From: an uncultured Planctomycetia bacterium
Lineage (GTDB): Bacteria; Omnitrophota; Gorgyraeia; 2-02-FULL-51-18
Reading direction: 5' to 3'
Assembly: GCA_964502045.1 (NCBI GenBank)
Contig: CAZCVC010000001.1
Location: forward strand, 1 to 30,885
DNA length: 30,885 nucleotides
A program made the translations under genes and the position numbers. Shown here in pieces: positions 721 to 17,300 of this stretch; the stretch's first letter is position 1; each line of letters begins with the position of its first letter. Below the pieces are notes generated by a model, which had not been told where the DNA came from, ran no database searches, and saw only the letters and a program-made list of their open reading frames with translations.

Positions 721-3700
721 AGCCAGGCGGCCGCCCTGCGTTTCGGCCAGCCGCGCGCCCACGCCGGGGCGCATCTTCACCGGCATCTGCTGCGCGCGGA
801 GCGTGTCCGGGAACTTGCGGATGTCAACTTTGTCGGGCGACAAGCTCTGCGACGCTTCCAGCAGACCCGCCGTCGCGAGATATTCGACCTTCGGTCCGAT
901 CTTGGCATAAAGAAGGCCCGGAAACTTTTCGGGCGCCACATTGGCCACTTTGGCTTCTTTTTCTACCATGCCTACGTAATCGTCCGTATGAATGCGGTTG
1001 GGGTCGAACGCACGCGCCAACAGGTACGCCCGCGTATCATCGTCGATATACGCGGCACTGAGAAACTTGCCCATTTCGGAGCGAGTTTCGGGGTTGTACT
1101 GGTATTGCTGAGCCGATTCATAGCTCAGCCGCCAGGCCAGCTCGGCGTTGATGGTTTGGTCCGGATTGCGGAAAAATACGCGCATGTTATTCAGCAGCGC
1201 ATAGTGAAGATAAGGATTGATCGGAATGTCGTTCGGCTCCCCGGGCTCACCTTCGATGTTCGCGTCGTAAGGCGCATCGGGAAAAGCCGGCCGGCGGCGC
1301 GTAACGCGGCGCTCTCTTCCCTCGCCCTCGACCCGCACGATGTAATAGTGAGGATCATCCGGATCGGCCGGGGAAGTGGAAACGTAGACGTCCTCAGGCG
1401 TGCCACCGACGCCGGTCGCGCGCGTACGCATCGGATTGGTCGAATTGTCGTAATACGGCGTCCCGACCGGCTCGCCGTAAGGGTCCGTGGGATGACGCTC
1501 GTCTTTCATGCCGGCCTTAAGCTTCCGGTCGATCCGCGTTACGAAATCTTCATTAGCAACGATGTCGTCGAAAATGTCACGGAAACGGATGAAATAGCGG
1601 CCGCTGTCGTTGTCTTCGAAATAGGTCTCCTCGCCGGACACCGGATCAACGGCTTTCTTGTAGGGCCTACCTTGCGCCGCCGAGATCTGCCGGACGAGAT
1701 CCTCAGAGATCATCAGCGCCTTCGAAAAATGACGCTCATAGGCCTGGATCGCGCCGACGTTGCGGTTCATAGAACCATCCGGCATGTCGGCGCCCGTCGA
1801 TTCAGTCATGTGCACATGGTTCATGATGAAGATGCCGGTCAACGGAAACTGGTAGGACTTATCTTCTTCGCGTTCGCCGATAGTCACGTTTTCGTCGGGG
1901 CGCATCCAGTCCCTGATCGGCATTTTCATGCGCCGCCGCAGGATGTGCTCGACGACTTCGGGATGGAACTGCGAAAGAATGCTCGCGGCCGTGCTTCCGG
2001 CGCCGCAGGTGAATACTTTTGCCTGCTGGAAATTGAGCATCGTCTGCCATGAGGCCGACGGCGTAGACGTGAAATCAGGCTTCCCGTCAGGACCGATCCG
2101 GTAGACGCCGAAGTCGACCATGTAATTATCGTCGAGATAAAGGTTGTCTATGACGCCCTGACTGACGGCCACGTTCGGTTGGCCCGCCAATTCGCCGGTG
2201 GCCCTGTATTTCACGTTCGCCGGATGCGCCCAGTCGATCGGATGTTTATAGCGCGCGACGAGGACGCTCGGCTGTATCGTGGAAACGGAAGTGCCGACGA
2301 CTTTGCGGCTTGTCGTTTCCAAGCCCAACATCGTGGGCAGCACGTAGGACAGCACCATAAACTGCTTTTCTTTGTAATCCCTTGTCGCCTGGTCCCAATT
2401 GAGCACGCGCGTTTTGAAGCCCATCGCCAGCTCGTAGAGGTTGCGCACACTGTTTTCTTCGATGACGGCCTTTCTGAAAAAGTCGGGCATTGCCGGACGA
2501 TTGCCGGCATCTTTTAGGTCGATGAAATCATTGTCGATGATGCGTGCCGTGTTAAGCAGGTTGGCGATGAACGATAACGGCAGGTGCTTGGCTTCGGCGC
2601 GCAGCAGGTTGACCGTGTTGTCGATACGGTCTTCGGGTTCGCGCAGCCTCCAGTCCGATGGAATGTCGCGCGCGGTCCTTTCAAGTTCGGCCTTGATCAC
2701 GTCGACATAATGCTTCTTGTCGCCGTGGTCCTTCGCGCTGAGGCGCAGCTCGAAAATCCTCGCGAACGCCGAGTGCTTCGACGCGAGCGCCTCGACAGTT
2801 GAAGGCCGCTTGTCTTCGAGCATCAGGTTCAACATCTGTTCGCGGTCGCCGACGCCATAGACGGGTCCAAACACCGGCCGCACGGCGGCGTTCTGCTTGC
2901 CCGATCCGCCGCCCGAATCAGTGCCGGGAGACGAAGTGCTTTTTTTTCCGAGCGACTTCACGTAATGGAACAGCGTGCCCTCGAACGTCTTCACGAGCCC
3001 GCCGCCTCCGCCGATCATGATGATGTCCGACGGCGGGGCACGGCCGCTGAGAATCAGCTGTTTGATCTGTTTGTAGGTCGGGAAAACTTGCGGCACCGGC
3101 AGCGAACGACCGGGGAAATACATGCCCTCGGCGTCGACCGGATAATCGCCCAGGATGACCTGCGCGACCGATTCGCGCTTGAAATCGGCCTCCTGGTGCA
3201 ACGCTTTCAGGAGCTCGTCGTCGGCATCACGGGCAAGCTTGAGTATTTCATTGCGTGAGGACGCCGCTAGGTCTTTGCGCTTGAGCGCAGCCTGCTTCAC
3301 CAGGTAGAGCCTCTGCATCGCTTTGAAGTTGTCGCTCATGAGCGCATGCACGTGCATCGCGATACGGTCGGCATTGTTGCGCCCTTTTTCGAAATATTGT
3401 CGCGCCGCATTTTTTAGACCGTCCCTCTGGCCATCTCCGAGCGTGTCGTAATCGATAACACCATTCCTCGCCGCGAACCAGCGGGCCCTGGCCTCGACTA
3501 GGCGTTCTTTTGCATCCGCATCGCCGATCTTTTGGTAATCATCAATTTCCTGGCCCTGAAAATAGGTGTTGAACACCGATGAAAACTGCCCCTGATTGTG
3601 GTCGAAACGGCTTACAGCCTCCGTGAGCTTCATAGCTTCATAGCCGCGGACGTCGAAATAGTCCCTCGCTCTTTCACGCAGCTCTGTTTTCTGGCTGTCG

Positions 3701-6700
3701 GGTAGCTGGTCGAAATGCTTGATCCTGTTTTCTTTTGCAGGCTTGAAAAACTGGCGCGCCTTTTGTTCGATCATCCCCGCCTTGTCGGTGGTGGCGGACC
3801 AGAAGCGGTTCAGCTCCTCGTTCTTGGAGTTGAGGAAACGCACTTCTTCGGCCGTCAGCATGACCATGTAGAGCGTGCCGATCTGGTTATCAATGAAATC
3901 GCCGTCGGCGCCGCTCAGGCGGATATACGTCGCGAACGACGACTCTGCCTCGACCTGCACGAGACGCTCTATCAAGATCGGATCCTCGAATGTCTCCAAT
4001 AAACGGTCGACAGCCGCCTGCCTGAAACTGCTTTTGGTACCTACGTGTCCCCCGACAAAATCGAGCCGGTTCGGATATGTTTTTTTGCCGGGCGCGCGTC
4101 GCTGCAGGATGATATTGCCGGTATCAGGATCCACGAGAATGATGTTCACGTTGCGATGCAGCGCGCCGGTGCGGTGCGCCTCTTCAAGGGAAACGGCTGT
4201 GCCCGTGAAAACACCGTCGGCGTCAAGCACATCGACGGTCGTGACGGCGAGGCGCGCGCCTTGCCTTTCCAACGAGGCGGCCGTGACGACTTTCAGGTTC
4301 ACGGTCCTCAGGAAGTCCGAATGTCCTGCCTGGCCGGGCAGTCCGTAGCTGGTGACGATGTTGAAATCCCGTTCCGCGCTGGCCGCGACTTCGGCGCGGA
4401 AAATTTCGATCTCGGTGTATTCGACGTAGCGGGTGAACCGCTCGAATTCTTTCGGCTCGTGGCTGATCAGGACGGGAGCGACGCCGGGCAGGATGTTCAT
4501 GCGGCGTGCGGTCACGGCACTCGGCGTGATCATGATGAGGCGGACGCCGAGCTCGAAAAGACGCTGGGCCGTGGCGCCGGTCTGGCTGAAAATGACGGTG
4601 CCTTTCGCGTTGGAGATCGCCGCACGGTGCGCGACCGAATAAGTGCCCTGCCACAAGAGTGAGGAAGCGATCATTTCCTGGTCCTTCTCGAACCTCTCGC
4701 GCACAAGTTTGTCCTGGCGTTCCTTGAAATTGACTTTTTTCTCGGCTTCGCCGATCGAGGCTTTCAGCGCGCGGATCACAAAACCGGTCTGAGTGAACCC
4801 TTCGTCTCCGTTCGCGTAGCTGACGAGGCCCGCGCCTTCGCTGATCGACGCTTCGAGGCTCTGCGGGTCAGCCGGGTCATGGTCGACGATGCTCAAAGCA
4901 CCCGCGGCCAGCGTTTTTTGAAGGAACGTGTTGCGTACCAGGGGATAATGCTGAGATCCGGCTTCCTTCGATATCGCCTTCTTGTCGAGCCAAACGCCGT
5001 CCAGCGAAGGCAGCACGCGCTCGAGGTTGTCGAACGCTTCCTGCGTGCCCACTTTCGCGAAAAGGAACGCTCCGTTCGTGATTTCCGCGCGGAACCGAGC
5101 GAGGTCGCGGCTCTTGCTGCCGAGAGGCACGACGACGCCGTCCACGTCGAGCTCTTTCATGCCGTAGGCGATGTCCGCCGTGTCTTTTTCGTCGGTCTTG
5201 CCGCCGAGTACCTGTACGACCGTGACGAGGCTGCGCGTTTCGGCCGCGATCTCGCGGAGGCGCTTGACCGTGTCCTTGACCCACTCGCGATGGTCTTCGG
5301 TAATATCGGTAAAATCGAAACTCGCGGACTTCATGCCGCTCTTCAGAAGTTCGCGCAGCGCCGTGTCGGAGCTGAGCGAGGGCGTGATCGCGACCATCAC
5401 GCCGGCGCGGTTCCCGCGATGCGGCGACGACGCCAGGATCAGCGGCTCTTCCTGCAGGATCTGCACGCCCGGATGCGGGATAACGGTGTCGAGTCCGGAT
5501 TCCAGCAAGAGTCGCGCTTCGCGCGAACCGAGATTTTTTTCTTTCAGCACGTCGAGCACGACAAGGCGGTCTTCGGGACGCACCGCGAGCCTGTCCATAA
5601 TCGAGGTGAATGCCGCCGTGTCCTTCAGCACCGTCGGTTTTTCTATCTTGTCGCTGTCTCGGCGGCCGATGTCGACGTTCACGATGTAGGCGACATTGCC
5701 GATCTTCACGCGGTAGGACTTGATGTCGGGGTTCGTGTTGTTGATCGGCATCGCATCGTCGGGACGATCGAGGAAATAGCGGTTCAAGCGCTTGCGGAAC
5801 CATTCTCCTGCGAGGAAATCGTTCGCGCGGCGGTCGCCCTTCATCGCCTTCTGCAGAACGGCCACCGGGTCCCGGTAAGCGGCCAGCGCGTCGCTGACCG
5901 TCGAAAGGTTCGCGGCAGCGGTCATCAAGTGTCCGAGCGGACGGCTCAGCTTCACCGAGGCTACCTGATAGGCCGCGAAATCGTCGGGACGCTCGTGGCG
6001 CAACTTTAAGCACCAGTTAAAAACGGCGCGGAAATCTTTTTCTTCGGGCCCGTTCGGGATCAGCACGTTGCCCGAGCCGGGTACCGTGCGGTCGAGCACG
6101 ACGCCGTTCAACTGCGTGATGCCTTCGATCCAGGGCGCGGCGATCATCAGGGCGCCGTTGACGGCGCTGTCGGACTCCGTGAATTCGGCGGCGCCGGTCG
6201 CGCGCCTTGAAACCATCACCTGCACGTCGAAGATTGAAAGCGCTTTCAGTTTTTCCCTCGGGCCCCAGCCGGTCACGACGATGAGGCCGCCAGGGACCTC
6301 CTCGTTGACTTCTTTTTCCAGGGCCTTCAGCCTGAGCAACATTTTGTGGCTGTCCTCGCTGGGCTGGACGTTCACCATCAGCACGACCTGGCCGCCCGCG
6401 CGTTCGTCGTTGCTGCGCACGATGTCGAGGATGTTGTCACGCGTCCATACGGTCTGCTCGTCGATCTTTTCGGGCACGAGGCGCGCGACGATGCCGAACG
6501 TGGTCTTGTTTGGATCGAGCTTGGAGAAAAGGGGATTATAATCGTTCAGCGTCTCGTCGTCGCGCGCGGCTTCCTTGGCCAGGACCTTGGCGCTCTTAAA
6601 CTGCGTGATGGTGGGACGCTCGAAATCGACGCCGGCGTCGGCCGCTGTCAGGTGCTTGCGGAATTCGGACTGAGATTCGGGCCGGTTGTCGCCGTTCGTG

Positions 6701-9700
6701 TTGGCCACGGCGGGCGTCGCCGTCGGATCCAGGTGCGCCAGATCGTCCATATGAGGGCCGCTGACTTTCGAATTGGCGTCGGCGGTGCGGATGGCGCCGC
6801 TGGTGTCGTCGGTGTCGGTGATGCGTTCAAAATAATGGTGCATGTGCTGTGGGATGCCGGCGCGGTTCAGCGCTTTGCGGCCGTCGTTCAACGGATACGT
6901 GCCGCGGTTCGGGTACGTATGGGAAACGTGCCAGAAAAACGCGTCTTTCAGGATGTGTTCTTCTTTACGCCTCTGCGAATTTTCTTCTTCGATGCGGCGG
7001 TAAACGAACAGTTTGCCGATCTGTCCGTCATTACCGACGACGACGGGCGCCTTATAAGCCGCTTTCTTCGCTTCTTTATCGCGTTTTTCGAGTTCTTCGA
7101 TGAGCTTCAGCGACGCGCGGCTGAAAAATTCCGAAAATTCCTGCCAGGAGCCGGTGCCGTATTTCTCGTACTGGTACATCAGTTTCGTGATGCGGCCGTC
7201 CTTGTCGCGGATGAGCCAGGCTTCCTTGCCTTCCCGGTTGGTCCCCCGGAAAGCCTCCGCCGTGACGTCTACGCCCCCGACCTTGACCTGGAACGTCAGC
7301 TGGGGTTCGGGCTGTAAGTCATTGGCAGGCCACGGAAGAGTGCTGTAATCGAACGGTTTGGGCTCGAAAACGTTCAGCTTTGTGTTGGGATCGACGACCG
7401 GGTGGCCGGCGGCGTCGCGGACGAGCTCGAGACGCAGGCGGTACATCGGCTCGATCGTCACGACCTGCGCCTTGCTCTGCATCAGTGTGGTTTCGCCGGA
7501 AGAAACGAACTGCAGCACGGGTCCCAGCCCGCCGCCCACGAGCGAAATTTCGGGCGAAATATTGTAGACGGTGCGCCCCTCGAGTTCGGGCGCGAACCTT
7601 TCGAGCCAGTTATCCCGGACGATGCCGAACATCATCAGGATGCGGTCGGCCAGCACGCTCTTGGCCAGCGCCGGGGACGCCGACTCCTGGATCAGCTTCA
7701 GCACGGTTTCCTGCTTCGCCTTGTCCATGATCGCGACGGCCCGCAGCACGGGCTGATAGCGCTCGACCGGGTATTGGTGAAGCAATTCGATGGTGTCGGA
7801 ATATTCGAGCAGTATTTCGGTCAGTTTTTGTTCGGGAGCGCCAGAGGCCAGCGCGTCATCCAGGACTTTTTTGATATATTCGACACTGTTGGTCTTCACG
7901 GCCAAAAGCGGCTTCGGCACGTTCAGCATCAGCCCTTTGCCGGCTTTTTTCAGGAGGCCGATGCGCTTCATGCGCTCGACGAGAAGTCCGATCTCGGTCT
8001 TGTCGGTCTGCAGGCCGAACGCTTTGAGCCGGTCCTCTATCAGCGCGACCAGCACGGTCCTATCCACCGGCGCTGATTCTTCCTGCGCCAGAAAGATGGA
8101 ACCGATGATGTTCATGCGCTGCCAATTAGGCCTCAAGTCCCAGCGGCCATCCGGCCATTTGTCGCCGACGCCTTCCCAAAGCCTTTCGAGATAAGTCGGT
8201 ACCGCGGCGACGAGGCGTGCGCCTTCCGCTTTCAAAGTTTCTGCGAAATCTCCGGCTTCCGTTTTTTTCCGCGGCGCAACGGCGGCCATGCGGGAAGCAG
8301 CCACGATTTGTTTGTCCAGCTCGAGACCCCGGCCGACTTTGTACTGCAGTATTTTCCAGACCAATCCGCGTTCCGTCATCAGCGCGCCGATCTCTCTCTC
8401 GGCCTGCTCCCGGTCGGTATTCTCTTTCAGGAACACGGCGCCGACGCCGCCTCCGAAAGAGCCTGCGCCCTTCTGTCCTTCCACGTAGGAGGGCATTGCC
8501 AGCACCAACGCGTTCCAGTCGGCGTTGACATACGTCGGCGAATTCACGGCGAACGCATTTCCTTCTTCGATAGTCAGTCGTATCACTTCGTTCAGATCTT
8601 GGCGGGCAAGCGCGGCGATAAGGGCAGCGGTGCGATCGGCGCCGGTATCACGCGTGCGCGGGAAGCTCTTGGAGCCGCGCAGACGCAGCTCGATCAACGG
8701 TTCGAGGATTTTTTGGGCGCTGGTACCGGCAACGCGTATGCCTGTATCGATGAGTATCATGCGGTCCGCGAGGCGGCGCGTGATCTGGTCTTTCAGGTCG
8801 GACGAAAGTCCCAGGCCGATCTCCTTCAGTGTGTCGATCGTGCCGGCCCCCTCAGTGCCGATCAGGTTCAGTCCGGCAAGGATCGTACCGTAAGGGTCCT
8901 GCCATCCGCCGGTGGAATTATCGGGGTTGCGGCTGCCGAGAAACGCTTCGACGGCGGCCGCGCGCAGCGCGATCTCGGCGTTGGTGCGCGGCTGGCCCGC
9001 CAACTCGAACAGTTCTTTCAAAAATTCTGCGGCCGCGCCGCCCGAGCCTCCAAGACCGTTCGGAAGCGGCTTCGCGCAGCGGATCTCGAGACCGTTCATC
9101 GGGGCCGTCTTTCCCGCCTCGGTGTTGTTGTAGGCCAGGAAGAAATCCCGAAGGCGGGCCGTAAAAGTTTCCTGTGTGTCCGTGAGTTCCCCGCTTTCGT
9201 TGCGCTGGATGTAGCCGGCCTCGGCCAGAGACGCGACAGCATAGGCGAATTTTGGATCGTCGAGCTTCGAGAAAAGCTGCTGCACGTCCGCGGTTTCGAG
9301 CACGGCGCCGTTGTCCGCGATGATGCGTATTTTTTTCTCGGTGATGGGCCGCATCGAGGCGCCCTCCTCGTAACCCTCGATCTCGATCGCCATGTTCACG
9401 ACTTTACCGGGCACGCCGGAAACCACATCGATGATGAGGTCGCATGCGAGCGCGCCGTGCGTCAGATCGAAGCGTCCGGAGCGGCGCGCTTTCAATGATT
9501 TTCCGTAAAGGTCAGGCGCCAGCGCGAACGGCCCTGCGTAAGGCTGAATGTAGCTGCGCAGCTGCGTCTCGAACGTGCGGTAGATGAGCTGGTTGCGCAT
9601 GCGGCGGTACCTCACCTGCTCGGTGGGGCCGTCGGGCGCGAGCAAATGCAGGTTGTCGCCTATCTTCGAGAACTCGCGAAAATAAGCGGAAGATGTACGG

Positions 9701-12700
9701 TCGAAAAGGTCCGCGAGAAACTGCATCGCGCGCAGGCGGAACTGGATCGCCTGCGATGGGTTCGTCGAAGTGCCGACCTGGTCGTTAGTAATCTTCACCA
9801 TGATCTCGTGCGTTTTTTTCAGCATCTTTCCGAACGTGGCCGGGTCACCGTTCTCGGTCTTGCGTATCAGGTCGTTCATCATACGGCGCGTGTCGCGAGT
9901 GCGGATCAGGCCCTTCATGATGTATTCGTGGATCAGCAGGTTGCGCGTCGCGTTTTCGATCGCGGCGAAGTTGGCGTTGCCCTTTACTCCGAGCTCCAGC
10001 CACCGCAGAGCCAGCGTGATCAGCCCCGAGTTGTCGCCGTCAGCCTTCTCGGCCTGGATCAGTCCGAGTCTCTTTTCTAGGTCTTTCATCGAAGCGACGT
10101 GAAGCTCGAGCTGCGAGATCTTGTATTTCAGCACGCTTGGGTCGATGATCTCGGCGCCGGCGTTGACCGTGTAATACTGCTGGATAATGCCGTTGATGGT
10201 GCGGCCGAGGGCCCTGTCATCAGGTTTCGCGTTACTATATAGGAAGACGGTGTCGGCCTTCTGCTGGCTAAGGACGCTGGCCAGCGCCTGGCTGAAGATG
10301 ATCTGACCGAGCTTTTCGAACGTTTGGTCGCCTTCGTTCCACGGATTCACGAGCGTGTACGTGTATTCTCCGCTGCGGTTCATTTGTTCGACCGCGTAGT
10401 TCAAGCGTGCTTCGAGACGGGCGGCCGGCAGTACCTCGTCGAGCTCCTGGCCAAGCAGATGGCTGCGGTTCTCGATCCGGAAACGAGTCTCGGCTTTGAT
10501 GACCGCTTCTCGCGCCAGCTCCTTATAGACGACGTCGCGCGCGCGGCCGCTGGTGCCGATGCGCTTCGTGACATCGTCGTCGGTGGGCTTGTCGCCGTTG
10601 TCGAGCATCGTGATGCGGTTGTTGATGGTCTCTTCCGAAAGCGGCGTGAGAAATACCGAAATGGGTTGGAAGCCGTATTTGGCCTGCACGTACTCACGAA
10701 TCTTCTGCGCCGCGTTGTTTCCGACTTCGATCAGCGAAAGATGGTCTTTGTCGAGCGCCTCGTCGAGCGACTTCAGGTCGATGCCGTGAAGGTCGCCGCC
10801 GAGCGGCTCTTTGATCAGCAGGATCTTGCCTTCGCTCTCGAGCTGGCGCAATTCGTCCTCGCTGCGGAAATAATATTCGACGCCTTCGTTCTCGCCGGGT
10901 CTCTTGGCGCGGCTATTGTAGATGACGAGGCGTTTTACCGCCTCGCCATGCACGCGCTTCATCTCTTCGAACCCGATCGTTCCCTTGCCGGCACCCGACG
11001 GGCCGGACAGGATGATTAGCTTGTTCGCGCGGCCCACTTTCGAGAAGCCGACCGACCCGACGAGATTCTTCATCTCGACGCTCGACATCATTTTCATGAT
11101 CTCGAATGTAGAGCCGGTCTCAAAAAAGTTCTTCGGCTTGTCCGTGACGAGCCCGAACAGCTTCGTCAGGAATTCCTCTTCGGTCGCCGTGTCAAAATTG
11201 TAGCCGACGAACGCGTGTTCGACCGCCATGTCGCGGACGATGTCCTGGCGGCTCATCTTCCTCTTTAATACCAGCGGGGTCTTCGCGACGAACTGGGCCA
11301 GTCGGGCCGCCAGCACGGTTCCGCCGCTGTCGCGGGCCGCGGCCGCGATCAGGTCCGCGCGCGGACGAGCCGCGTTAGCCTCGAGGCTCGCGACGGCCTT
11401 CGTCAACGCTTCGCGCAGTTCCGGATAGATCAGTTCGAATTGAATGCCGCCGTACTCGCCGGGCTTGCTCAGCACGTCCGCAACGACGGCGGGCCACGGC
11501 ATCCATTTGGACTCGGAGGCCTCGCCTGCTTCGAGCTTGGTCTGGGCGCCGGGCGGCAAAACGACGAAATAAATGCAGCGGTATTGGTTGACGGATTGAT
11601 CGCCGACGTGCACGTAGCCGGTGCCTTCGAACCCGGGACCGGAATCGGCTTTCTTCACGCCGCCCTTCGTCTCTCGGATCTTCCATCCTTTTGCGGGGCC
11701 CAGACGGATCATCTGGCTCTTGGGGAACGGGACGGCTGTTTCTTCCAGGACTTCGCGGCCCGCGGCATCGTCGAAAGCTTCGCCGGCCATGACATTGCCG
11801 GCGGCCGCGACGTCCCAAGTGTTCGGGAAGGCTTTCTTCGTCGGGCTGCGCTTCTGCAGCATCATCTCGACTTTGCCGGCGTTATTGAGGCGGAACATGA
11901 AGACGTTGACGCTGCGGTGATAGGTCTCGGTGCCAATCAGGTATTGGCGCTCTATCGTGTGGCCCGTCACGTCGCCGTCGTTGTCCAGAATATCGGCTCT
12001 TTCCACGGCCAGACGGGCGGCGGCGGTCAAAGGGGCCGGCGCGTCGGATTCGTCGTCGGCATTGAGCACTTCGGCGGGACGGGCCGCGGAATCCGGCATC
12101 GTGCTTTCCCCGTCAAACCAAACGACGTCCTTGCCGCGGACGCGTTGGCTATAGGCCTTAAAAAGGATGTCGCCGAGGTCCGGTGGGCTCAGCGCCAGAC
12201 GGTAGCCGCGCTTGGCCGCGGCATCATAAAACGGAGTGTAGCGGTCCACGATCAACTTGATGTCGGCCGGCGGAACACGGTTCTGGCTGAACACGGCCTT
12301 GTAAGCCAGCAGCAGCTTCGCGATCTGGTTCTTCGCCTCATCGCGCGTCAGCTCTCCGTTGCCGAGCATGTTGTTGAGCTTGAACGAAAGATAAAAATCG
12401 GAGTCCTTGAACTGCTCCTCGTATTCGCGGGGCTTCTGCGTCAGGATCGCGATGTAGGGACGGTCTTTTGATTTTTCGTCGAATTTCGGCATCACGATGA
12501 GGTACGAGAGCTTCTCGCCGTCCATCAGGGACGAAATGCCCTCGGAGTGGAAGCCGCCGGTGATCAGCGCCGCGACGCGCGCTCCTTCTTGTTTCATGCG
12601 GGCGCGCGTGTTTCGGATCAGCGCCTCATTGCGGCGCGAGGCCAATTCGTAAAACTTCATCGCATCGGGGATCGACTCCTCGAGCACCGAGAAATCGACG

Positions 12701-14013
12701 TACTGCAGCGCGGGCACGCCGTATTTCGTTCCGAGCGCCTGCAGCGTGTTCTTGATCTCGGCGACCTGGCAGGCGCTCAGGTTCTTCGTCAGATATTCGT
12801 AGTCTTTCGAGGTCAGCGCCGTGTCCAATAATTGCGAAAAGATAGACGCGCAGCGCGAAAGCGCGGCCAGCCGGCGCTCCTCGTCCGAGCGGAACAGTTT
12901 TTCGCGGACATCGTTTTCAAAGCCTTCGGACTCGTCGAAGATGGAGATCAGGTCGATGCCTTCGTAAAGACGCACGTATTCGGAATAAAGGATGATGTTC
13001 GCGTAGGTGAGCGGATCGATGCCGGCCCTCTGCGAAAATTCGGCGAGCGCTAGGTGGAACTTGCCCGGCGTCATCTTGTTCTGCTTGAACGCGAGCATGA
13101 GCGCGACGAGCTTCTGAAGGTCGGGTTTCGCGAGCTTGCGGTTCAACTCGGCCATCAGCGCCTCGCGTTCGAGGCCGGCCTTCTTGAAGTCGATCCCTTT
13201 TTCGAGCGCGACCGTATCCGCCAGTTTTTTTAGGTTTGGGTACTTCGAAAAACCGACGCCGTTCGCGGCCGCCGTCCGGGTGAAATATTCCCAGTACTCG
13301 GTGAATTTCACCGAGCCGGTCCGGTGCAGCAGCTTGTGGCGCGTCAGCTCGGCCAGTTCGAGGGAATAGACCTTGTTTTCGAGCTCGCGCAGCGCGCGCT
13401 TCAGACCCTTCAGTTCCTTGCGGACGCGGACCTTCCGGTCGACGATCGATTTGAAGACCGCGAGGTTTTCGTCGTACAGCTGGGGGTCGTCGACGCCGTA
13501 GAGTTTGACCGGCGCTTCCGTGATCATCGAATAAAATTCGCCGGCCGAGATCTTGCCCTCTTCCATCAGCAGCGTCGCGGCCTTGCGGCGGACCTGTTCG
13601 GACGGAAAGCTCTTCACGATCGACGTGTCGATGAGGTCGTAGCCGCCCTCGAGCGCGATCAGGTTCAGGTTGTAATTCTTGACGAGCGAATCGAGGATCT
13701 TGGAGATGGATTCCTGGGCGCCGAGGTTGGAGTGAGCATCCTGGATGTTGATGATGAGTTCGTCGGTGTTTTTCGACACGTTCTTGCGGGAGATGCCTGA
13801 TTCTTCGGGAATAAGGACACTGTTTAACGCGTCGGGCGTCCCCTGGACCTTCACGTCGGTGACGCGCGACCACACCGGTGCGCCGCCTTGGGCCTGGACG
13901 GCATCGTGGCACGCGAACGTGAATACCAGCGCGGCCGACAAGGCGCGGATCTTCCATCCGTACGAAGTGCGGAAAGGCGGCTGATTGTTTTTTGTTGAAC
14001 TTCCGTTGTCCAA
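1..14013 (-). CDS. Giant multi-enzyme, probably exported protein (gene B), at least 4,671 aa, 3'-truncated by the window edge
   Basis: Manual translation of the minus frame from TTG at 14013 (MDNGSSTKNNQPPFRTSYGWKIRALSAALVFTFAC...) to position 1 shows no stop codon. AGGGGA Shine-Dalgarno 7 nt upstream. The ORF track lists no minus-strand ORF in this frame, consistent with no stop. Many recognisable enzyme motifs lie in frame. Confidence 0.95.
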   Translation of the reverse strand, partial: MDNGSSTKNNQPPFRTSYGWKIRALSAALVFTFACHDAVQAQGGAPVWSRVTDVKVQGTPDALNSVLIPEESGISRKNVSKNTDELIINIQDAHSNLGAQESISKILDSLVKNYNLNLIALEGGYDLIDTSIVKSFPSEQVRRKAATLLMEEGKISAGEFYSMITEAPVKLYGVDDPQLYDENLAVFKSIVDRKVRVRKELKGLKRALRELENKVYSLELAELTRHKLLHRTGSVKFTEYWEYFTRTAAANGVGFSKYPNLKKLADTVALEKGIDFKKAGLEREALMAELNRKLAKPDLQKLVALMLAFKQNKMTPGKFHLALAEFSQRAGIDPLTYANIILYSEYVRLYEGIDLISIFDESEGFENDVREKLFRSDEERRLAALSRCASIFSQLLDTALTSKDYEYLTKNLSACQVAEIKNTLQALGTKYGVPALQYVDFSVLEESIPDAMKFYELASRRNEALIRNTRARMKQEGARVAALITGGFHSEGISSLMDGEKLSYLIVMPKFDEKSKDRPYIAILTQKPREYEEQFKDSDFYLSFKLNNMLGNGELTRDEAKNQIAKLLLAYKAVFSQNRVPPADIKLIVDRYTPFYDAAAKRGYRLALSPPDLGDILFKAYSQRVRGKDVVWFDGESTMPDSAARPAEVLNADDESDAPAPLTAAARLAVERADILDNDGDVTGHTIERQYLIGTETYHRSVNVFMFRLNNAGKVEMMLQKRSPTKKAFPNTWDVAAAGNVMAGEAFDDAAGREVLEETAVPFPKSQMIRLGPAKGWKIRETKGGVKKADSGPGFEGTGYVHVGDQSVNQYRCIYFVVLPPGAQTKLEAGEASESKWMPWPAVVADVLSKPGEYGGIQFELIYPELREALTKAVASLEANAARPRADLIAAAARDSGGTVLAARLAQFVAKTPLVLKRKMSRQDIVRDMAVEHAFVGYNFDTATEEEFLTKLFGLVTDKPKNFFETGSTFEIMKMMSSVEMKNLVGSVGFSKVGRANKLIILSGPSGAGKGTIGFEEMKRVHGEAVKRLVIYNSRAKRPGENEGVEYYFRSEDELRQLESEGKILLIKEPLGGDLHGIDLKSLDEALDKDHLSLIEVGNNAAQKIREYVQAKYGFQPISVFLTPLSEETINNRITMLDNGDKPTDDDVTKRIGTSGRARDVVYKELAREAVIKAETRFRIENRSHLLGQELDEVLPAARLEARLNYAVEQMNRSGEYTYTLVNPWNEGDQTFEKLGQIIFSQALASVLSQQKADTVFLYSNAKPDDRALGRTINGIIQQYYTVNAGAEIIDPSVLKYKISQLELHVASMKDLEKRLGLIQAEKADGDNSGLITLALRWLELGVKGNANFAAIENATRNLLIHEYIMKGLIRTRDTRRMMNDLIRKTENGDPATFGKMLKKTHEIMVKITNDQVGTSTNPSQAIQFRLRAMQFLADLFDRTSSAYFREFSKIGDNLHLLAPDGPTEQVRYRRMRNQLIYRTFETQLRSYIQPYAGPFALAPDLYGKSLKARRSGRFDLTHGALACDLIIDVVSGVPGKVVNMAIEIEGYEEGASMRPITEKKIRIIADNGAVLETADVQQLFSKLDDPKFAYAVASLAEAGYIQRNESGELTDTQETFTARLRDFFLAYNNTEAGKTAPMNGLEIRCAKPLPNGLGGSGGAAAEFLKELFELAGQPRTNAEIALRAAAVEAFLGSRNPDNSTGGWQDPYGTILAGLNLIGTEGAGTIDTLKEIGLGLSSDLKDQITRRLADRMILIDTGIRVAGTSAQKILEPLIELRLRGSKSFPRTRDTGADRTAALIAALARQDLNEVIRLTIEEGNAFAVNSPTYVNADWNALVLAMPSYVEGQKGAGSFGGGVGAVFLKENTDREQAEREIGALMTERGLVWKILQYKVGRGLELDKQIVAASRMAAVAPRKKTEAGDFAETLKAEGARLVAAVPTYLERLWEGVGDKWPDGRWDLRPNWQRMNIIGSIFLAQEESAPVDRTVLVALIEDRLKAFGLQTDKTEIGLLVERMKRIGLLKKAGKGLMLNVPKPLLAVKTNSVEYIKKVLDDALASGAPEQKLTEILLEYSDTIELLHQYPVERYQPVLRAVAIMDKAKQETVLKLIQESASPALAKSVLADRILMMFGIVRDNWLERFAPELEGRTVYNISPEISLVGGGLGPVLQFVSSGETTLMQSKAQVVTIEPMYRLRLELVRDAAGHPVVDPNTKLNVFEPKPFDYSTLPWPANDLQPEPQLTFQVKVGGVDVTAEAFRGTNREGKEAWLIRDKDGRITKLMYQYEKYGTGSWQEFSEFFSRASLKLIEELEKRDKEAKKAAYKAPVVVGNDGQIGKLFVYRRIEEENSQRRKEEHILKDAFFWHVSHTYPNRGTYPLNDGRKALNRAGIPQHMHHYFERITDTDDTSGAIRTADANSKVSGPHMDDLAHLDPTATPAVANTNGDNRPESQSEFRKHLTAADAGVDFERPTITQFKSAKVLAKEAARDDETLNDYNPLFSKLDPNKTTFGIVARLVPEKIDEQTVWTRDNILDIVRSNDERAGGQVVLMVNVQPSEDSHKMLLRLKALEKEVNEEVPGGLIVVTGWGPREKLKALSIFDVQVMVSRRATGAAEFTESDSAVNGALMIAAPWIEGITQLNGVVLDRTVPGSGNVLIPNGPEEKDFRAVFNWCLKLRHERPDDFAAYQVASVKLSRPLGHLMTAAANLSTVSDALAAYRDPVAVLQKAMKGDRRANDFLAGEWFRKRLNRYFLDRPDDAMPINNTNPDIKSYRVKIGNVAYIVNVDIGRRDSDKIEKPTVLKDTAAFTSIMDRLAVRPEDRLVVLDVLKEKNLGSREARLLLESGLDTVIPHPGVQILQEEPLILASSPHRGNRAGVMVAITPSLSSDTALRELLKSGMKSASFDFTDITEDHREWVKDTVKRLREIAAETRSLVTVVQVLGGKTDEKDTADIAYGMKELDVDGVVVPLGSKSRDLARFRAEITNGAFLFAKVGTQEAFDNLERVLPSLDGVWLDKKAISKEAGSQHYPLVRNTFLQKTLAAGALSIVDHDPADPQSLEASISEGAGLVSYANGDEGFTQTGFVIRALKASIGEAEKKVNFKERQDKLVRERFEKDQEMIASSLLWQGTYSVAHRAAISNAKGTVIFSQTGATAQRLFELGVRLIMITPSAVTARRMNILPGVAPVLISHEPKEFERFTRYVEYTEIEIFRAEVAASAERDFNIVTSYGLPGQAGHSDFLRTVNLKVVTAASLERQGARLAVTTVDVLDADGVFTGTAVSLEEAHRTGALHRNVNIILVDPDTGNIILQRRAPGKKTYPNRLDFVGGHVGTKSSFRQAAVDRLLETFEDPILIERLVQVEAESSFATYIRLSGADGDFIDNQIGTLYMVMLTAEEVRFLNSKNEELNRFWSATTDKAGMIEQKARQFFKPAKENRIKHFDQLPDSQKTELRERARDYFDVRGYEAMKLTEAVSRFDHNQGQFSSVFNTYFQGQEIDDYQKIGDADAKERLVEARARWFAARNGVIDYDTLGDGQRDGLKNAARQYFEKGRNNADRIAMHVHALMSDNFKAMQRLYLVKQAALKRKDLAASSRNEILKLARDADDELLKALHQEADFKRESVAQVILGDYPVDAEGMYFPGRSLPVPQVFPTYKQIKQLILSGRAPPSDIIMIGGGGGLVKTFEGTLFHYVKSLGKKSTSSPGTDSGGGSGKQNAAVRPVFGPVYGVGDREQMLNLMLEDKRPSTVEALASKHSAFARIFELRLSAKDHGDKKHYVDVIKAELERTARDIPSDWRLREPEDRIDNTVNLLRAEAKHLPLSFIANLLNTARIIDNDFIDLKDAGNRPAMPDFFRKAVIEENSVRNLYELAMGFKTRVLNWDQATRDYKEKQFMVLSYVLPTMLGLETTSRKVVGTSVSTIQPSVLVARYKHPIDWAHPANVKYRATGELAGQPNVAVSQGVIDNLYLDDNYMVDFGVYRIGPDGKPDFTSTPSASWQTMLNFQQAKVFTCGAGSTAASILSQFHPEVVEHILRRRMKMPIRDWMRPDENVTIGEREEDKSYQFPLTGIFIMNHVHMTESTGADMPDGSMNRNVGAIQAYERHFSKALMISEDLVRQISAAQGRPYKKAVDPVSGEETYFEDNDSGRYFIRFRDIFDDIVANEDFVTRIDRKLKAGMKDERHPTDPYGEPVGTPYYDNSTNPMRTRATGVGGTPEDVYVSTSPADPDDPHYYIVRVEGEGRERRVTRRRPAFPDAPYDANIEGEPGEPNDIPINPYLHYALLNNMRVFFRNPDQTINAELAWRLSYESAQQYQYNPETRSEMGKFLSAAYIDDDTRAYLLARAFDPNRIHTDDYVGMVEKEAKVANVAPEKFPGLLYAKIGPKVEYLATAGLLEASQSLSPDKVDIRKFPDTLRAQQMPVKMRPGVGARLAETQGGRLAVKLIDIFDEKESKIGQMDIDQAHITGALHRGVSIILVHPETGHVIIQKRSAKKKTYPGAFDFVGGHVAAGTSFEESAVARLSDNLGTPVDVERLIRVDKQGSFRVNVTTNDGAAPVIENQMTTMYMLVLTPEEVKALELKSNELSRFWAALPSQHGGFITGRAKAFAAADHKKWDELDGPARAAYATRAIDYFDVQGYTTMEFPQLIQAYDDNPTQFAGPFRVHLGDNKKADKIAEQLAA
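1690..3030 (-). other. YvcK/GlmR (UPF0052)/CofD-like domain with large insertions
   Basis: DIIMIGGGGG (2998-3027), TDSGGGSGK (2896-2922), GDRE, NSVRNLYELA, CGAGSTAASIL (1975-2007) and IFIMN (1819-1833). These match in order the YvcK motifs IVVIGGGTG, DDGGSSG, GDIR, HSLGNL, GPGSLYTSIL and VYVCN. Confidence 0.75.
3500..4245 (-). other. Nudix-fold domain copy 2, degenerate Nudix box
   Basis: VDVLDADG..GALHRNVNIILVDPDTGNIILQRRAPGKKTYPNRLDFVGGHV. Box at 3982-4050 reads GHVGTKSSFRQAAVDRLLETFED. Confidence 0.8.
4270..5400 (-). other. Pyruvate kinase-like module (barrel plus C domain, no lid domain), probably inactive
   Basis: VMVAITPSLSSDTALRELLKSGMKSASFDF; DEKDTADIAYGMKELDVDGV; LFAKVGTQEAFDNLERVLPSLDGVWL (cf. 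[31 protein letters not shown]); C-domain AKGTVIFSQTGATAQRL...TARRMNILPGVAPV. Confidence 0.75.
5420..5720 (-). other. Possible alpha-amylase/GlgE-type C-terminal beta-sandwich
   Basis: VKIGNVAYIVNVD...RLVVLDVL...GLDTVIPHPGVQIL resembles the VVVNLD...VRDELTG...VRLDP pattern of GH13 C-terminal domains. Judged by eye only. Confidence 0.35.
5870..7600 (-). other. GT-B glycosyltransferase domain, alpha-glucan phosphorylase (GT35)/glycogen synthase (GT5)-like
   Basis: TVYNISPEISLVGGGLGPV (GGGLG at 7522-7536), VVVGNDGQ, WHVSHTYPNRG, ANTNGD, TFGIVARLVPEK, VMVSRRATGAAEFTESDSAVNGAL (6154-6210), all in canonical GT35/GT5 order. Confidence 0.75.
8320..9500 (-). other. GHMP-superfamily sugar kinase domain (L-fucokinase/HddA-like)
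   Basis: SGRFDLTHGALACD..GKVVNMAIEIEG; PLPNGLGGSGGAAA (9028-9069); TGGWQDPYG; MILIDTG; GQKGAGSFGGGVG. Confidence 0.85.
10290..11020 (-). other. Guanylate kinase-like domain
   Basis: LIILSGPSGAGKGT P-loop; YNSRAKRPGENEGVEYYF; ISVFLTPLSEE; ARLNYAVEQMNRSGEYTYTLVN. Confidence 0.85.
11400..12000 (-). other. Nudix hydrolase domain copy 1 (IDI/YfcD-like), near-canonical Nudix box
   Basis: YHRSVNVFMF..MMLQKRSPTKKAFPNTWDVAAA, then GNVMAGEAFDDAAGREVLEETAV (11731-11799), which fits GX5EX7REUXEEXGU apart from one G to A. Confidence 0.9.
12470..13770 (-). other. N-terminal EreA/ChaN/TraB(Tiki)-like domain with long helical insertion
   Basis: IINIQDAH (QDAH 13732-13743), LIALEGG (ALEG 13645-13656), LYGVDD..Y.EN, RN (12628-12633), ALITGGFH (GGFH 12547-12558), SYLIVMP. 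The order matches the H/E/RN/GxxH layout of this fold. Confidence 0.65.
13891..14013 (-). other. Sec signal peptide-like N-terminus of gene B
   Basis: Basic region (FRTSYGWKIR), hydrophobic ALSAALVFTFAC, then DAVQA|QG as a candidate SPase I site after residue 41. Confidence 0.55.
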
Positions 14014-14019
14014 GCGTTT

Positions 14020-14026
14020 TTCCCCT
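14020..14026 (-). promoter_or_regulatory. Shine-Dalgarno site of gene B
   Basis: Minus strand reads ctaaAGGGGAaaaacgcTTG. Confidence 0.8.
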
Positions 14027-14153
14027 TTAGAACTTAGTCTAGTAGATAAGAAATATTTATATGAACCGCGAAAAAAATTTCTTTAGAAAAAGGGCAAAGC
14101 CATCGGATGCCGGGAATAAGAGAAACCGATCCCGCCGGTCGATTATTCAAAGA

Positions 14154-14357: not shown

Positions 14358-17300
14358 TTAAGCGGACTGCGCCAGCGCCCTCGCCAGACGCGTGGCGGCG
14401 CGCAAAGCCCGGTCGATGTCCAGCGAACGCAGCCAGCGGATCACGGTGCCGAGGCGCCCGCCTACCTTTTTTAGGAATGTTTCGTCCTTGAAACCGATGC
14501 CGACGTTTTCACCAACGAAATAGCCCGCGAAGAAAAGTACCGGGTCCCGGTAACCGTCTTCGGCGACAACCATGAACCTCGAAAGCGGCGGTTTTTCGGC
14601 GCTGATCCTGCCGGAAACCGCCTCCGCTGTGTCCCCGCTTCCTGCCGAAAACGCGAACGCGATATTTTCGGGCGGCACACCGGCCTTCGTCAATGCCGTG
14701 ATCGCCGCTTTGCGGTCGGGAGAAATGTCATAGCGGACCCTCGAATCGATGCCGGCGCCCGATTGGCCGATGACGCGCAGGCGCATGCCCTGCTCCTGGG
14801 TCTTGGCCGCGATCTTCCAGAAAAGTTCCTTTTGCGGGCCGCTGTTGATCTTCGCAATCATCGTCTCTTCGATCACCATCGCCGATTTCGCCGGCACGAT
14901 GGCGGCTTCCGTCGCTGAAAGTCCGCGGAACGCGCGCATCGCGCCGCCCTCCGGCATCCCGGCGCCTTCAACCCCGAACAGGGCGTCGAGCTGTTTCAGG
15001 ATCTCGGCCGGCTCGAGCGCTTCCTTTTTGATCAGCAGGCTCGTCTCGTTCCAAATACGGCGCGTTTCCTCGAGGTCAACGGCGTCGAGCGCCCCGATAA
15101 GCGAGCGGATCTTATTCAAAAAGAGCAGGTCACGAGCATCGGCCAGCGCGAGGCCGGCCGCGGCCTTCAGTGTAAGGCCCGACGCTTGCGGATCCAAAAT
15201 GCTTTCGGCCGCGTGCGGCTGTCCGGACGCTTTTGACCGGAGCTCGCTCAAATAAACCCGCGCGGTGTCGCCTCCGCGGTCTTCGGGAGCCCGGCGGATC
15301 GCATAAAAACTCACCCCGGCGCCAAAATTCGAAGATTCCAGCGCCTTCAGATCATCGGGCGAAGCGCCGATGACGCCGACAGCGATGGGCTCAGCAAACG
15401 CCGGCGCCGCGAGCCTGGCGGCCTGCGTGTCAGGTTCCAGAAAATCCTTCTTCATGGCGGCGATGACGGCCGGGATGTCGAATGGAGCGTCCGCCCGATA
15501 AAAGACGATGGAATAATGAACGAGGCCTTCGAAGTCGAGCTTGGCGATGAGCTGCGCTTCAGGCGACGCGGCGTCCGCGGCCGCGGCCGTCGCCAAAGCC
15601 AGCGTCAGGTCCGTCGTCACCTGAACGAGCCCGGGGTCCGGCGCGGCGGCGTCGTCCGGCTTCGGAAAATGAAGCTGATAATAGGCCTCCAGCTGAGCCA
15701 GGTCGCCGGCGGTCAGCGTCAGGATCTCCGCCAGCTTGGGGTTCGCCGGAAGAGCGTCATCCGGCTCGTCGTCGGCGTCCCCCTGCGCAGACGGATCCAT
15801 AGCCTTGATAATCATGTCGAGCGGGTGCGTCTGAAGCGGCGTGCCGCTCTGCCGGAACAGGTTCGCCTTAGTGAGCAGCGACGACAATTTGGTCGTCGGC
15901 GGAGCTTTCAGGACCACTTTGACAAGATACGCGCCTTCCTCGACCGCGAAACCGAATACGCCAAACGCGTCGATCAGCTGCGACGGATCGGCGCCCGCGG
16001 CGGCGATAAGGTCGGAAATTTTAGCATCCGGCAGAGGCGCGGCCGGGACTTTCGATCCGGCCGCAATGACGCCGCCGGCGGCTTCGAGCTTCGCGCGTAT
16101 CGCTTCGGCCGCCTGGCGCCTTTCCGTCTCGAAACGGTGCCGCTGAAGCACCAGACCCTTGATCTTTTGGGCATCTCTCTGGTCGGGCCCTGTCTTTTCG
16201 ATGACGTCCCGAACGACGCGCTGCAGGAGGTCGGGGCTCACCTTAGAGTCCGGTATGTCGGTCAGGATGGCCGCCATCACTTCGGAGATCAACGCGCCGG
16301 CGCCCTTATTCGCTTTCAGAGCCTCGAAAAAGTCCGCGATTTTTTTCCGGTCGGAGGCGAATACCTTTTCGACGCCGACGATCGTCGCGTCATCTGGCAG
16401 CACCGCCTGCACGATCTCGATGACTTTCGCGTCCGGAAACGCCGCGTCGGCAGTTTTTGCCATGCGCACGACCTCGAACAATTCGATCGGATGCAGGGCG
16501 GCGATCGACGTCTTGTTCTGCACGGTCGTGAACACGAAGCCGGCGAGCGCGGCGCTCAGAGGATCGCTGTGACCGAAAGCCTGGAAAAAAATGTTGAGGT
16601 CGCCGGGTTTATCGCTGAAAGCCGCGGCGAGCTTTTCTAGCGTCGCGTCTTCGGTGAATTTCACGCCGTCTTCGTCCTCCACCATCAGGTTTTTAGCGAT
16701 CAACGTCGGGCGCACAAGGCCGAACAGGTCCTGCAGGCGGCGGTGCTCGACGATCTCTGCGACGAGGACCGGGATCGTCTTGCCGGCCGTGTGTCCGTCG
16801 CGGGCCATCAGCATGAATTCCATAGGATGCTGGGTCGCGGCAGCCGCTTCAGGCAGCGCGAGCGCAAGCTCGGCCATAAAGTTGCCGAGGCCGACGTTGT
16901 CGTCCTCGCTTTCGAAAAGAAGCGCAAGTTTCAGAGGGTCGGAACCCAACGCTGTCCGAAGCGCAGCCACGTTAGCTTTTTCGATCTTGTCGGCAAAGTC
17001 CAGGCTGTCGTCAGGACCGCCGGGCCCGCGTTCGATGACGCCGGCCAACAGGAGCGCCGCCTGGATCGCCGGTCCGATCGCGCCGTCTCCGAGCAGCTGC
17101 GCCGCTATCGCGGGCGCCTCCTTGCCACCGGCATGCGCGGTGCGCACCAGGAGCATGAATTCGAAAGGAGTCATGTCCTGCAGGACCCCGTCCGGCAGCG
17201 CCGCAGCCACTTCGGCCATGACCGGACCGAGGCCTTTATTCGGCTGATAGGATTCACAAAACGCCGGCAGCAGACGCACGTCGGGCGCAAGGCTCGCGCG

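Follow-up and report, generated by a model that had tools for sequence, protein, structure and literature searches.

Few genes on record match the giant genes of the Omnitrophota in length, which raises the question of how their products are exported, assembled or cut. The locus described here bears on that question through one domain. Contig CAZCVC010000001.1 of assembly GCA_964502045.1 (positions 1 to 30,885; contig C1 of the source genome, here referred to as the window, meaning the whole stretch of 30,885 nucleotides) is occupied by two giant minus-strand open reading frames (ORFs), ORF A and ORF B. ORF A opens with a signal peptide and a domain of about 500 amino acids (aa), here called the head, behind which enzyme modules, the cargo, follow. 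What kind of domain is this head, and what might it do for the protein that it leads? The source genome as sampled comprises 1.54 Mb in 298 contigs and is 81% complete. Unless a contig is named, coordinates are those of the window and refer to minus-strand features, and residue numbers are those of ORF A.

Fold and putative active site of the head

A first-pass annotation of this DNA, made from the letters alone, had proposed a Tiki/EreA/ChaN-like leader domain in which the motifs QDAH, ALEG, RN and GGFH follow a signal-like sequence. All of these are present, the signal-like sequence at aa 1 to 41 of ORF A and, behind it, QDAH at aa 91 to 94 (13732-13743), ALEG at aa 120 to 123 (13645-13656), RN at aa 461 to 462 (12628-12633) and GGFH at aa 486 to 489, within TGGFH (12547-12561). 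In an alignment of 161 homologous heads sharing 25 to 62% identity, the motif residues form the most conserved columns, D92 and H94 each being retained in 155 of 156 sequences, E122 in 157 of 157, and R461 and H489 each in 160 of 161; because the homologs are this divergent, the motifs are not a matter of chance. Also near-invariant are E159, G173 and P509 and, inside a helical insert, E271 and Y346 (model residues E227 and Y302; 160 of 161 for each). The lower bound of the interval suggested for the domain, 12470-14013, lies at aa 515 and omits the last 30 or so conserved residues, and the conserved domain ends near aa 544 (12382).

Direct scans of aa 1 to 671 against Pfam and NCBIfam gave no relevant match, and sequence and profile searches of the PDB with the head returned only noise. 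An AlphaFold2 (AF2) model of aa 45 to 560, built from a 39-sequence alignment, has a predicted local distance difference test score (pLDDT) of 86 and a predicted template modeling score of 0.80, and it consists of an α/β core split by about 265 helical residues. When this model was compared exhaustively, with VIA, with 48,161 PDB chains, the five best matches were EreC (6xcq; Z 9.2), HopBA1 (5t09; Z 8.9), Bcr136 (2qgm; Z 8.8), ChaN (2g5g; Z 8.8) and Bcr135 (2rad; Z 8.7), while RRSP (5w6l) matched with a Z value of 5.9. A second comparison, of Foldseek candidates, placed seven superfamily chains on top and added PMT (2ebh; Z 5.4). By the definition in PMC6254334, EreC, HopBA1, Bcr135, Bcr136, ChaN, RRSP and PMT all belong to the TIKI superfamily. 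The superfamily matches at Z 8.4 to 9.2 have alignments that cover both halves of the core, and their middling Z values are due to the insert of about 265 aa. In the Foldseek search of the PDB all E values exceeded 0.05 (the best was 0.055), but the weak top rows were again Ere and ChaN proteins. Taken together, the head very probably has the fold of the TIKI/erythromycin-esterase/ChaN/TraB superfamily; the structure prediction and the structural search agree with what the motifs had suggested, and no different fold emerged.

The N-terminal half of the core (aa 64 to 176; 13486-13824) carries IQDAH with D92 and H94, ALEG with E122, then E159 and YGVDD (13486-13500). Its AF2 strands lie at model residues 29-35, 42-48, 74-77 and 126-130 with a pLDDT of about 90, and its motifs, at least 97% conserved, each stand directly behind a strand. 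Between the core strands lies the all-helical insert, or lid, of about 265 aa (aa 177 to 440; 12694-13485), which is modeled as 13 helices with pLDDT values of 83 to 97 and which, searched alone, resembles nothing more specific than generic helical bundles. The C-terminal half of the core (aa 441 to 526; 12436-12693) comprises a long helix with R461-N462, a strand followed by TGGFH with H489, and a last strand followed by RPYIAIL (12442-12462), corresponding to a helix at model residues 397-432 and strands at 436-442 and 459-465. A second AF2 model shows an extra folded subdomain of about 90 aa, with three helices and a three-stranded sheet (aa 554 to 642; 12088-12354; model residues 510-598, pLDDT 84 to 96), between the core and the linker that holds the first AARLA motif. 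This subdomain is conserved in close relatives only, and the HMMER alignments of distant homologs end at about model residue 500.

The catalytic set of TIKI proteins comprises two His and two Glu residues plus an essential Arg, exemplified by E3900-x-H3902, E3930, R4001 and H4030 of RRSP and by H85 and E113 of Bcr135 (PMC6254334). The equivalents in ORF A are D92-x-H94, E122, R461 and H489, in the same order as in RRSP: the His-to-Glu spacing of 28 is identical to that of Bcr135 (H85/E113) and RRSP (H3902/E3930), and the Arg-to-His spacing is 28, compared with 29 in RRSP (R4001/H4030). In the AF2 topology, D92, H94, E122 and H489 directly follow core strands and R461 lies level with the strand ends, an arrangement that suggests that these putative catalytic residues face one edge of the sheet.

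It counts against the superfamily assignment that none of the Pfam models PF01963, PF04187 and PF05139 reaches its gathering score on the head. Weak matches to PF04187 (ChaN), the sole superfamily model with any, were found in relatives, namely, in 3 of 39 members (best E value, 0.0038) and, below threshold, in seven large head-bearing frames of six related genomes; the latter fall on positions 141-205 (mostly 158-205) of PF04187, and the matches are confined to the C-terminal GxxH region. Since the Pfam models stay below threshold, the head is best described as a new divergent family and not as a member of an existing one.

Within the superfamily, the closest resemblance is to the Ere family (EreA/B/C and Bcr135/136; 6XCQ, 6XCS, 2RAD, 3B55 and 2QGM; PF05139), which provides the best matches (Z 8.4 to 9.2, with 153 to 183 residues aligned) and likewise has an α/β core interrupted by a helical lid and the 28-residue His-Glu spacing of Bcr135. 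Ere enzymes differ from the head in standing alone, as proteins of about 400 aa; the head gives no sequence-profile match to them, its lid of about 265 aa is far larger, and the domain of ORF A is exported and fused to the front of a giant protein. The TIKI/TraB/PrgY/GumN peptidases, HopBA1 (5T09), RRSP (5W6L) and PMT C1/C2 (2EBH) share the TIKI fold, with Z values of 8.9, 5.9 and 5.4 for the last three named proteins, respectively. RRSP shares with the head the constellation of two His, two acidic residues and Arg and is itself a single domain within a secreted protein of very large size and modular build. What differs is the first motif, which here is x-D-x-H and not G-x-x-H or E-x-H, and the position of the domain: MARTX toxins carry their TIKI domain as an effector among the cargo and are processed by a different domain, a cysteine protease, whereas in the giants the TIKI-like domain invariably forms the head and is itself the putative peptidase. 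The ChaN lipoprotein family (2G5G; PF04187) resembles the head in structure (Z 8.8), in its weak sequence matches and in being exported, but the matches stay below the gathering threshold, ORF A has no lipobox and the head retains the full catalytic set. The head adds a large and architecturally unusual branch to the TIKI/erythromycin-esterase superfamily.

A probably exported module at the start of many giant proteins

The Sec-type signal peptide of ORF A begins at the TTG start codon (14011-14013), spans aa 1 to 41 (13891-14013) and shows the n/h/c layout in translation. On inspection it has the features of a signal peptidase I substrate, i.e., a basic n-region (K8, R15, K21 and R23), a hydrophobic core within the usual 7 to 15 residues (ALSAALVFTFA, 11 residues) and small residues at positions -1 and -3; the c-region ends in V-Q-A, and the predicted cut falls between V-Q-A and Q-G-G, with V at -3 and A at -1. 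Neither a lipobox nor a twin-arginine motif is present in it. The predicted mature N terminus is the motif QGGAPVWS (aa 42 to 49; 13867-13890), which stands out in the column frequencies of the homologs and is unstructured in the models, where the first 18 or so residues have pLDDT values below 50. The same signal layout was found in all 12 paralogs of the genome with an intact N terminus, with a small-x-small end and typically with FA before and AP after the cut, and a signal peptide-like N terminus is present in 127 of 132 complete homologs. The family signature reads (R/K)x(I/V)(S/A)..L..(A/T)F(L/V)xQDxxxA before the cut and QGGxPxWS after it. Such sequence conservation of a signal and the first mature residues (13867-14013) is unusual for Sec signals and may be the mark of a dedicated recognition step or an N-terminal modification step. 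A membrane anchor for the head was considered and rejected, since the signal core is too short and no transmembrane-like segment was detected in ORF A (outside the signal core) or ORF B.

Cysteine makes up 0.16% of residues in the genome's ORFs of at least 1000 aa versus 0.98% in ORFs of 250 to 700 aa, a six-fold depletion; among the 4671 aa of ORF A there are 8 Cys, of which the signal peptide contains one. Proteins that have to pass the envelope unfolded, such as the passengers of autotransporters and of two-partner secretion (TPS) systems, are typically poor in Cys, and the low Cys content of the giants would fit their export as unfolded chains. Because the signal is conserved family-wide and the giants are depleted in Cys, we take export to be genuine and not an oddity of annotation; judged from sequence features, it looks like a real, selected and family-wide property of head-bearing proteins. 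The first-pass annotation had called it odd that a Sec-type signal should precede cytoplasmic-type enzymes. The signal and the enzymes are indeed there, but the combination can hardly be called an oddity when the signal is kept in 127 of 132 homologs and the giants are Cys-poor.

A survey of whether this domain leads other giant proteins had been suggested, and its outcome is positive: the domain heads many large and giant proteins of the Omnitrophota. In an exhaustive HMMER search over 1.84 billion cluster representatives, the head profile matched 7,896 clusters at an E value of ≤1e-3 and 2,288 at ≤1e-30. Among the best 150 of these 7,896 matches, which are proteins of 388 to 7,834 aa, the domain starts within the first 135 residues and is single-copy in 150 of 150. 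Sampled genomes of the phylum carry it in 117 of 151 cases (92 of 124 high-quality genomes), usually in multiple copies and in frames of up to 23,964 aa. The 1.5-Mb source genome has it 14 times: 12 full copies open their frames and the start of a thirteenth is cut by a contig end, so that the head is N-terminal in every copy with an intact ORF start. Each of these paralogous heads sits on a different cargo; the complete paralogs measure 748, 846, 1067 and 2037 aa, and the others run off their contigs. By these comparisons, the head is a shared N-terminal module of a very large Omnitrophota family; it is either fused to 200 to more than 20,000 aa of cargo, consisting of cytoplasmic-type enzymes, or encoded by a gene of its own.

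This family is publicly undescribed as such and is an architecturally unusual variant of a known superfamily. All named homologs are annotated as hypothetical proteins of Omnitrophota, and none has its head covered by a precomputed Pfam domain, although two carry unrelated families elsewhere (PF05170 and PF01451). The giant genes described for the same phylum (10.1101/2023.11.21.568195; 10.64898/2026.06.07.730766) likewise encode a signal peptide followed by cytoplasmic-type Pfam domains (NUDIX, kinases and PPDK_N). According to West-Roberts et al. (2023, 10.1101/2023.11.21.568195), their N-terminal regions are generally without identifiable domains except for C39 or S8 peptidases; a TIKI/Ere-like head and an ARL junction motif go unmentioned both in that work and in the 2026 preprint 10.64898/2026.06.07.730766, and no paper in the literature collection searched linked Omnitrophota with TIKI or Ere. 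That thousands of giants share one exported head of about 500 aa with a known hydrolase fold and an intact putative active site makes the head a family-wide marker for gene starts and for classifying the giants.

The fourteenth copy of the genome, in a 2733-aa ORF with four ARLA sites (C19, 1-8199, minus strand), retains only the C-terminal half of the head (model residues 292-482); either the head is truncated or there is an upstream frameshift near the contig end. On C6, an 843-aa head-bearing ORF (3684-6215, plus strand) overlaps, in another frame, the start of a 2114-aa ORF with an HD domain and two GARLA motifs (6158-12502, plus strand). The two probably belong to a single gene, about 2,900 aa long, that a frameshift or an assembly error has split. 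Another head, the third, starts at 15029 on the same contig.

The (G/A)ARLA motif and the possible roles of the head

The conservation of the complete hydrolase constellation, at least 99%, argues for catalysis, and the head is probably an active exported hydrolase. What it might act on is suggested by a short motif in the cargo. Behind the extra subdomain of ORF A lies a Pro/Asp-rich linker of low model confidence (aa 643 to 693; 11935-12087; pLDDT 34 to 44 at model residues 599-649) that contains the first AARLA (aa 665 to 669; 12007-12021). A distance of about 150 aa between the GGFH motif and this site had been noted beforehand, which is roughly right, the actual interval being 176 aa. In the genome's ORFs of at least 1000 aa, (G/A)ARL(A/S/T) occurs 33 times versus 1.9 expected (17.7-fold) and in shorter ORFs about as often as expected; the exact form (G/A)ARLA accounts for 32 of the 33 sites, often with a second GSRLA or GGRLA 2 to 20 residues further on. 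The sites lie at aa 665, 902, 3252 and 4419 of ORF A and at aa 140 and 5155 of ORF B, and others are found on contigs C2, C19, C23, C25, C50, C67 and C95, among others. In the cargo of 150 homologs, too, no 4-mers are more strongly enriched than GARL, which ranks first, and ARLA.

The placement of the motif, in Pro-rich linkers at the starts of modules, would suit a processing site. Pro makes up 7.5% of residues upstream of the sites, compared with a background of 3.5%. The sites of ORF A lie in the gaps that separate Pfam domains, and three of the four stand immediately before the N-terminal hairpin of a NUDIX paralog; close relatives (identity of at least 45%) have 20 to 273 aa between the head and their first site. 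A recurring motif in flexible linkers between modules, as a polyprotein would have, is thus present, and on the sequence evidence (G/A)ARLA is a real, lineage-specific motif located where a processing site would sit.

Probably, the head leaves through Sec ahead of its cargo and takes on its fold as an active hydrolase outside the cytoplasm. The mechanism that we tentatively favor is that it would then act as a peptidase and mature its own chain, or partner chains exported along with it, by cutting in flexible linkers. (G/A)ARLA would mark these linkers in this lineage, the cut probably following Leu, and the head and the enzyme modules would be set free, in a manner comparable to the action of the cysteine protease domain in MARTX toxins. 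The autoprocessing of MARTX and large clostridial toxins offers an analogy for a cut between Leu and Ala, in that one protease domain serves a modular polyprotein and cuts after Leu in linkers; the MARTX domain is described as cutting only after Leu (PMC2780291). The toxin domain is an unrelated fold, an inositol-hexakisphosphate-activated cysteine protease that in MARTX is activated in a eukaryotic cytosol, and its action is proven whereas that of the head is hypothetical. That the head is a junction or self-processing peptidase, as the first-pass annotation had also proposed, is a tentative possibility by this analogy. The statement as a whole, an exported superfamily head together with this processing mechanism, we regard as plausible but somewhat short of probable. 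In its furthest form, the head would be the resident maturase of an extracytoplasmic polyprotein system with lineage-specific pentapeptide junctions, freeing itself and dozens of Cys-poor enzymes outside the cell, which is rather doubtful. If this were true, the freed Cys-poor, "cytoplasmic-type" enzymes could act on prey or host, and lineages with split genes would reach the same end state without cleavage. In any case, the head is a concrete candidate enzyme and (G/A)ARLA a defined candidate substrate motif, which makes the polyprotein question testable.

Such split genes exist. Stand-alone heads of about 500 to 550 aa were found, and two of the three examined lie directly upstream of signal-bearing multi-enzyme genes. 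In one related genome (G127; contig C3, 1-8426, minus strand), a 531-aa head gene with a signal is separated by 4 nucleotides from the following gene, which is 1279 aa long and encodes a signal of its own and aldolase-like and GlpX-like parts; a signal-bearing PPDK_N gene is the next in line. In another (G009; contig C111, 48-5114, plus strand), a 523-aa head gene is followed after 64 nucleotides by a signal-bearing fusion of PGK and GPI. These split forms mirror, as separate exported chains, what the fused genes would yield if their products were cut, and this ties the head functionally to multi-enzyme cargo. That glycolytic and gluconeogenic enzymes of central metabolism should bear Sec signals is noteworthy by itself.

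Several observations weigh against processing as the function of the head. Foremost, 114 of the 150 head-bearing homologs have no ARL site even though their active site is invariant, and the complete 2037-aa paralog on C7 of the source genome has none either. The paralogs of 748 to 846 aa carry only about 200 aa of cargo, with little to process, and the third stand-alone head, in genome G113, adjoins the housekeeping gene GlmS and has no cargo gene nearby; together, small-cargo paralogs and orphan stand-alone copies imply a role for the head other than the cutting of polyproteins. Heads of the source genome that are 26 to 61% identical to that of ORF A all go with the same motif, and a genome-wide recognition factor fits this pattern of divergent heads and one motif as well as the head does. 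In the AF2 model of head plus linker, the AARLA region is of low confidence and is not docked onto the head. Finally, the fold leaves the chemistry unfixed because the superfamily also has esterases and a haem-binding protein, and the nearest structures are in fact esterases. As to other junction motifs, RSE-x-R occurs 0 times versus 1.0 expected in the giant ORFs of this genome and 5 times versus 9.4 expected in distant homologs, and nothing stood out in a pooled search of the homologs that have no ARL site.

One of the two main rival readings is an active hydrolase with another substrate, that is, an esterase or peptidase that acts on the envelope, on prey or host or on small molecules outside the cytoplasm and is merely one more module of the giants, placed first. 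The closest structures (EreC and Bcr135/136) are esterases, the catalytic set is invariant while junction motifs vary between lineages, and both orphan copies and proteins with only about 200 aa of cargo exist. We nevertheless consider this rather unlikely: an ordinary module would hardly be strictly N-terminal and single-copy in 150 of 150 proteins while other modules shuffle freely, 12 to 14 paralogous heads with a different cargo each would hardly be kept in a 1.5-Mb genome, and two of three stand-alone copies would hardly stand directly upstream of signal-bearing multi-enzyme genes.

Alternatively, the head could be a targeting, secretion or anchoring module comparable to a TPS domain, recognized after Sec export by an outer-membrane or pilus-like machine or tethering the chain, with the apparent active site serving as a binding site. 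Its invariant position right behind a family-specific signal peptide and mature N-terminal motif would suit such a role, as would the strong Cys depletion of the giants, a usual trait of proteins that pass the outer membrane unfolded, and the type II/IV-like secretion loci reported near giant genes (West-Roberts et al., 2023). This reading is unlikely, as the conservation, at least 99%, of a complete hydrolase constellation points to catalysis. Moreover, the cargo of the split forms has its own signal and no head, so that the covalent link is dispensable, which speaks against a purely cis-acting targeting role. A TPS-like system would also be expected to have a transporter gene next to the exported protein, but no conserved partner or transporter gene lies beside the head-bearing genes on C6, C7 and C28 of this genome, whose neighbors are Wzy_C, a thioredoxin-like protein, DNA polymerase III delta', MetRS, an aminotransferase, TatD and unannotated genes.

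A noncatalytic, ChaN-like domain for binding haem or another cofactor is very improbable: ChaN is an exported protein, is among the best structural matches (2g5g; Z 8.8) and belongs to the only superfamily Pfam model with weak matches (PF04187), but these matches are below threshold and limited to the C-terminal GxxH region, and the full His/Asp/Glu/Arg/His set with its enzyme-like spacing is invariant.

The two giant frames and their surroundings

ORF B runs from 30884 to its stop at 14358, is open at its 5' end and exceeds 5508 aa; no Pfam family matched it anywhere at an E value of 1e-3, and this includes the SecA-like and HExxH peptidase modules that had been proposed for it earlier. Synteny of SecA with the head was considered and dropped, since ORF B, upstream of ORF A, has no Pfam match and PF07517 gives none on contig C1. 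In G127, a 1990-aa ORF with full SecA domains (SecA_DEAD, PP_bind and P-loop; C3, 8975-14947, minus strand) lies directly upstream of the stand-alone head gene.

ORF A extends without a stop from its TTG start at 14013 to window position 1 and off the window end, and exceeds 4671 aa. The border between head and cargo is marked by its first cargo module, a NUDIX domain (aa 699 to 843; 11485-11919; PF00293, E value of 3.2e-23). Further cargo identified by Pfam comprises a guanylate kinase (aa 997 to 1136) and pieces of a pyruvate kinase (aa 2941 to 3236), and a GHMP kinase N match at aa 1634 to 1693 is below threshold (E value of 0.0035; 18.0 bits versus a 22.3-bit cutoff). Many further giant frames occur elsewhere in the genome, one of them 7359 aa long with both ends open. 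Within the window, the stop of ORF B (14358) and the start of ORF A are separated by an AT-rich spacer of 345 bp, which contains a promoter-like site (14182-14154) and, as read directly from the sequence, the Shine-Dalgarno-like AAGGGGA (14021-14027) 7 nucleotides 5' of the TTG start.

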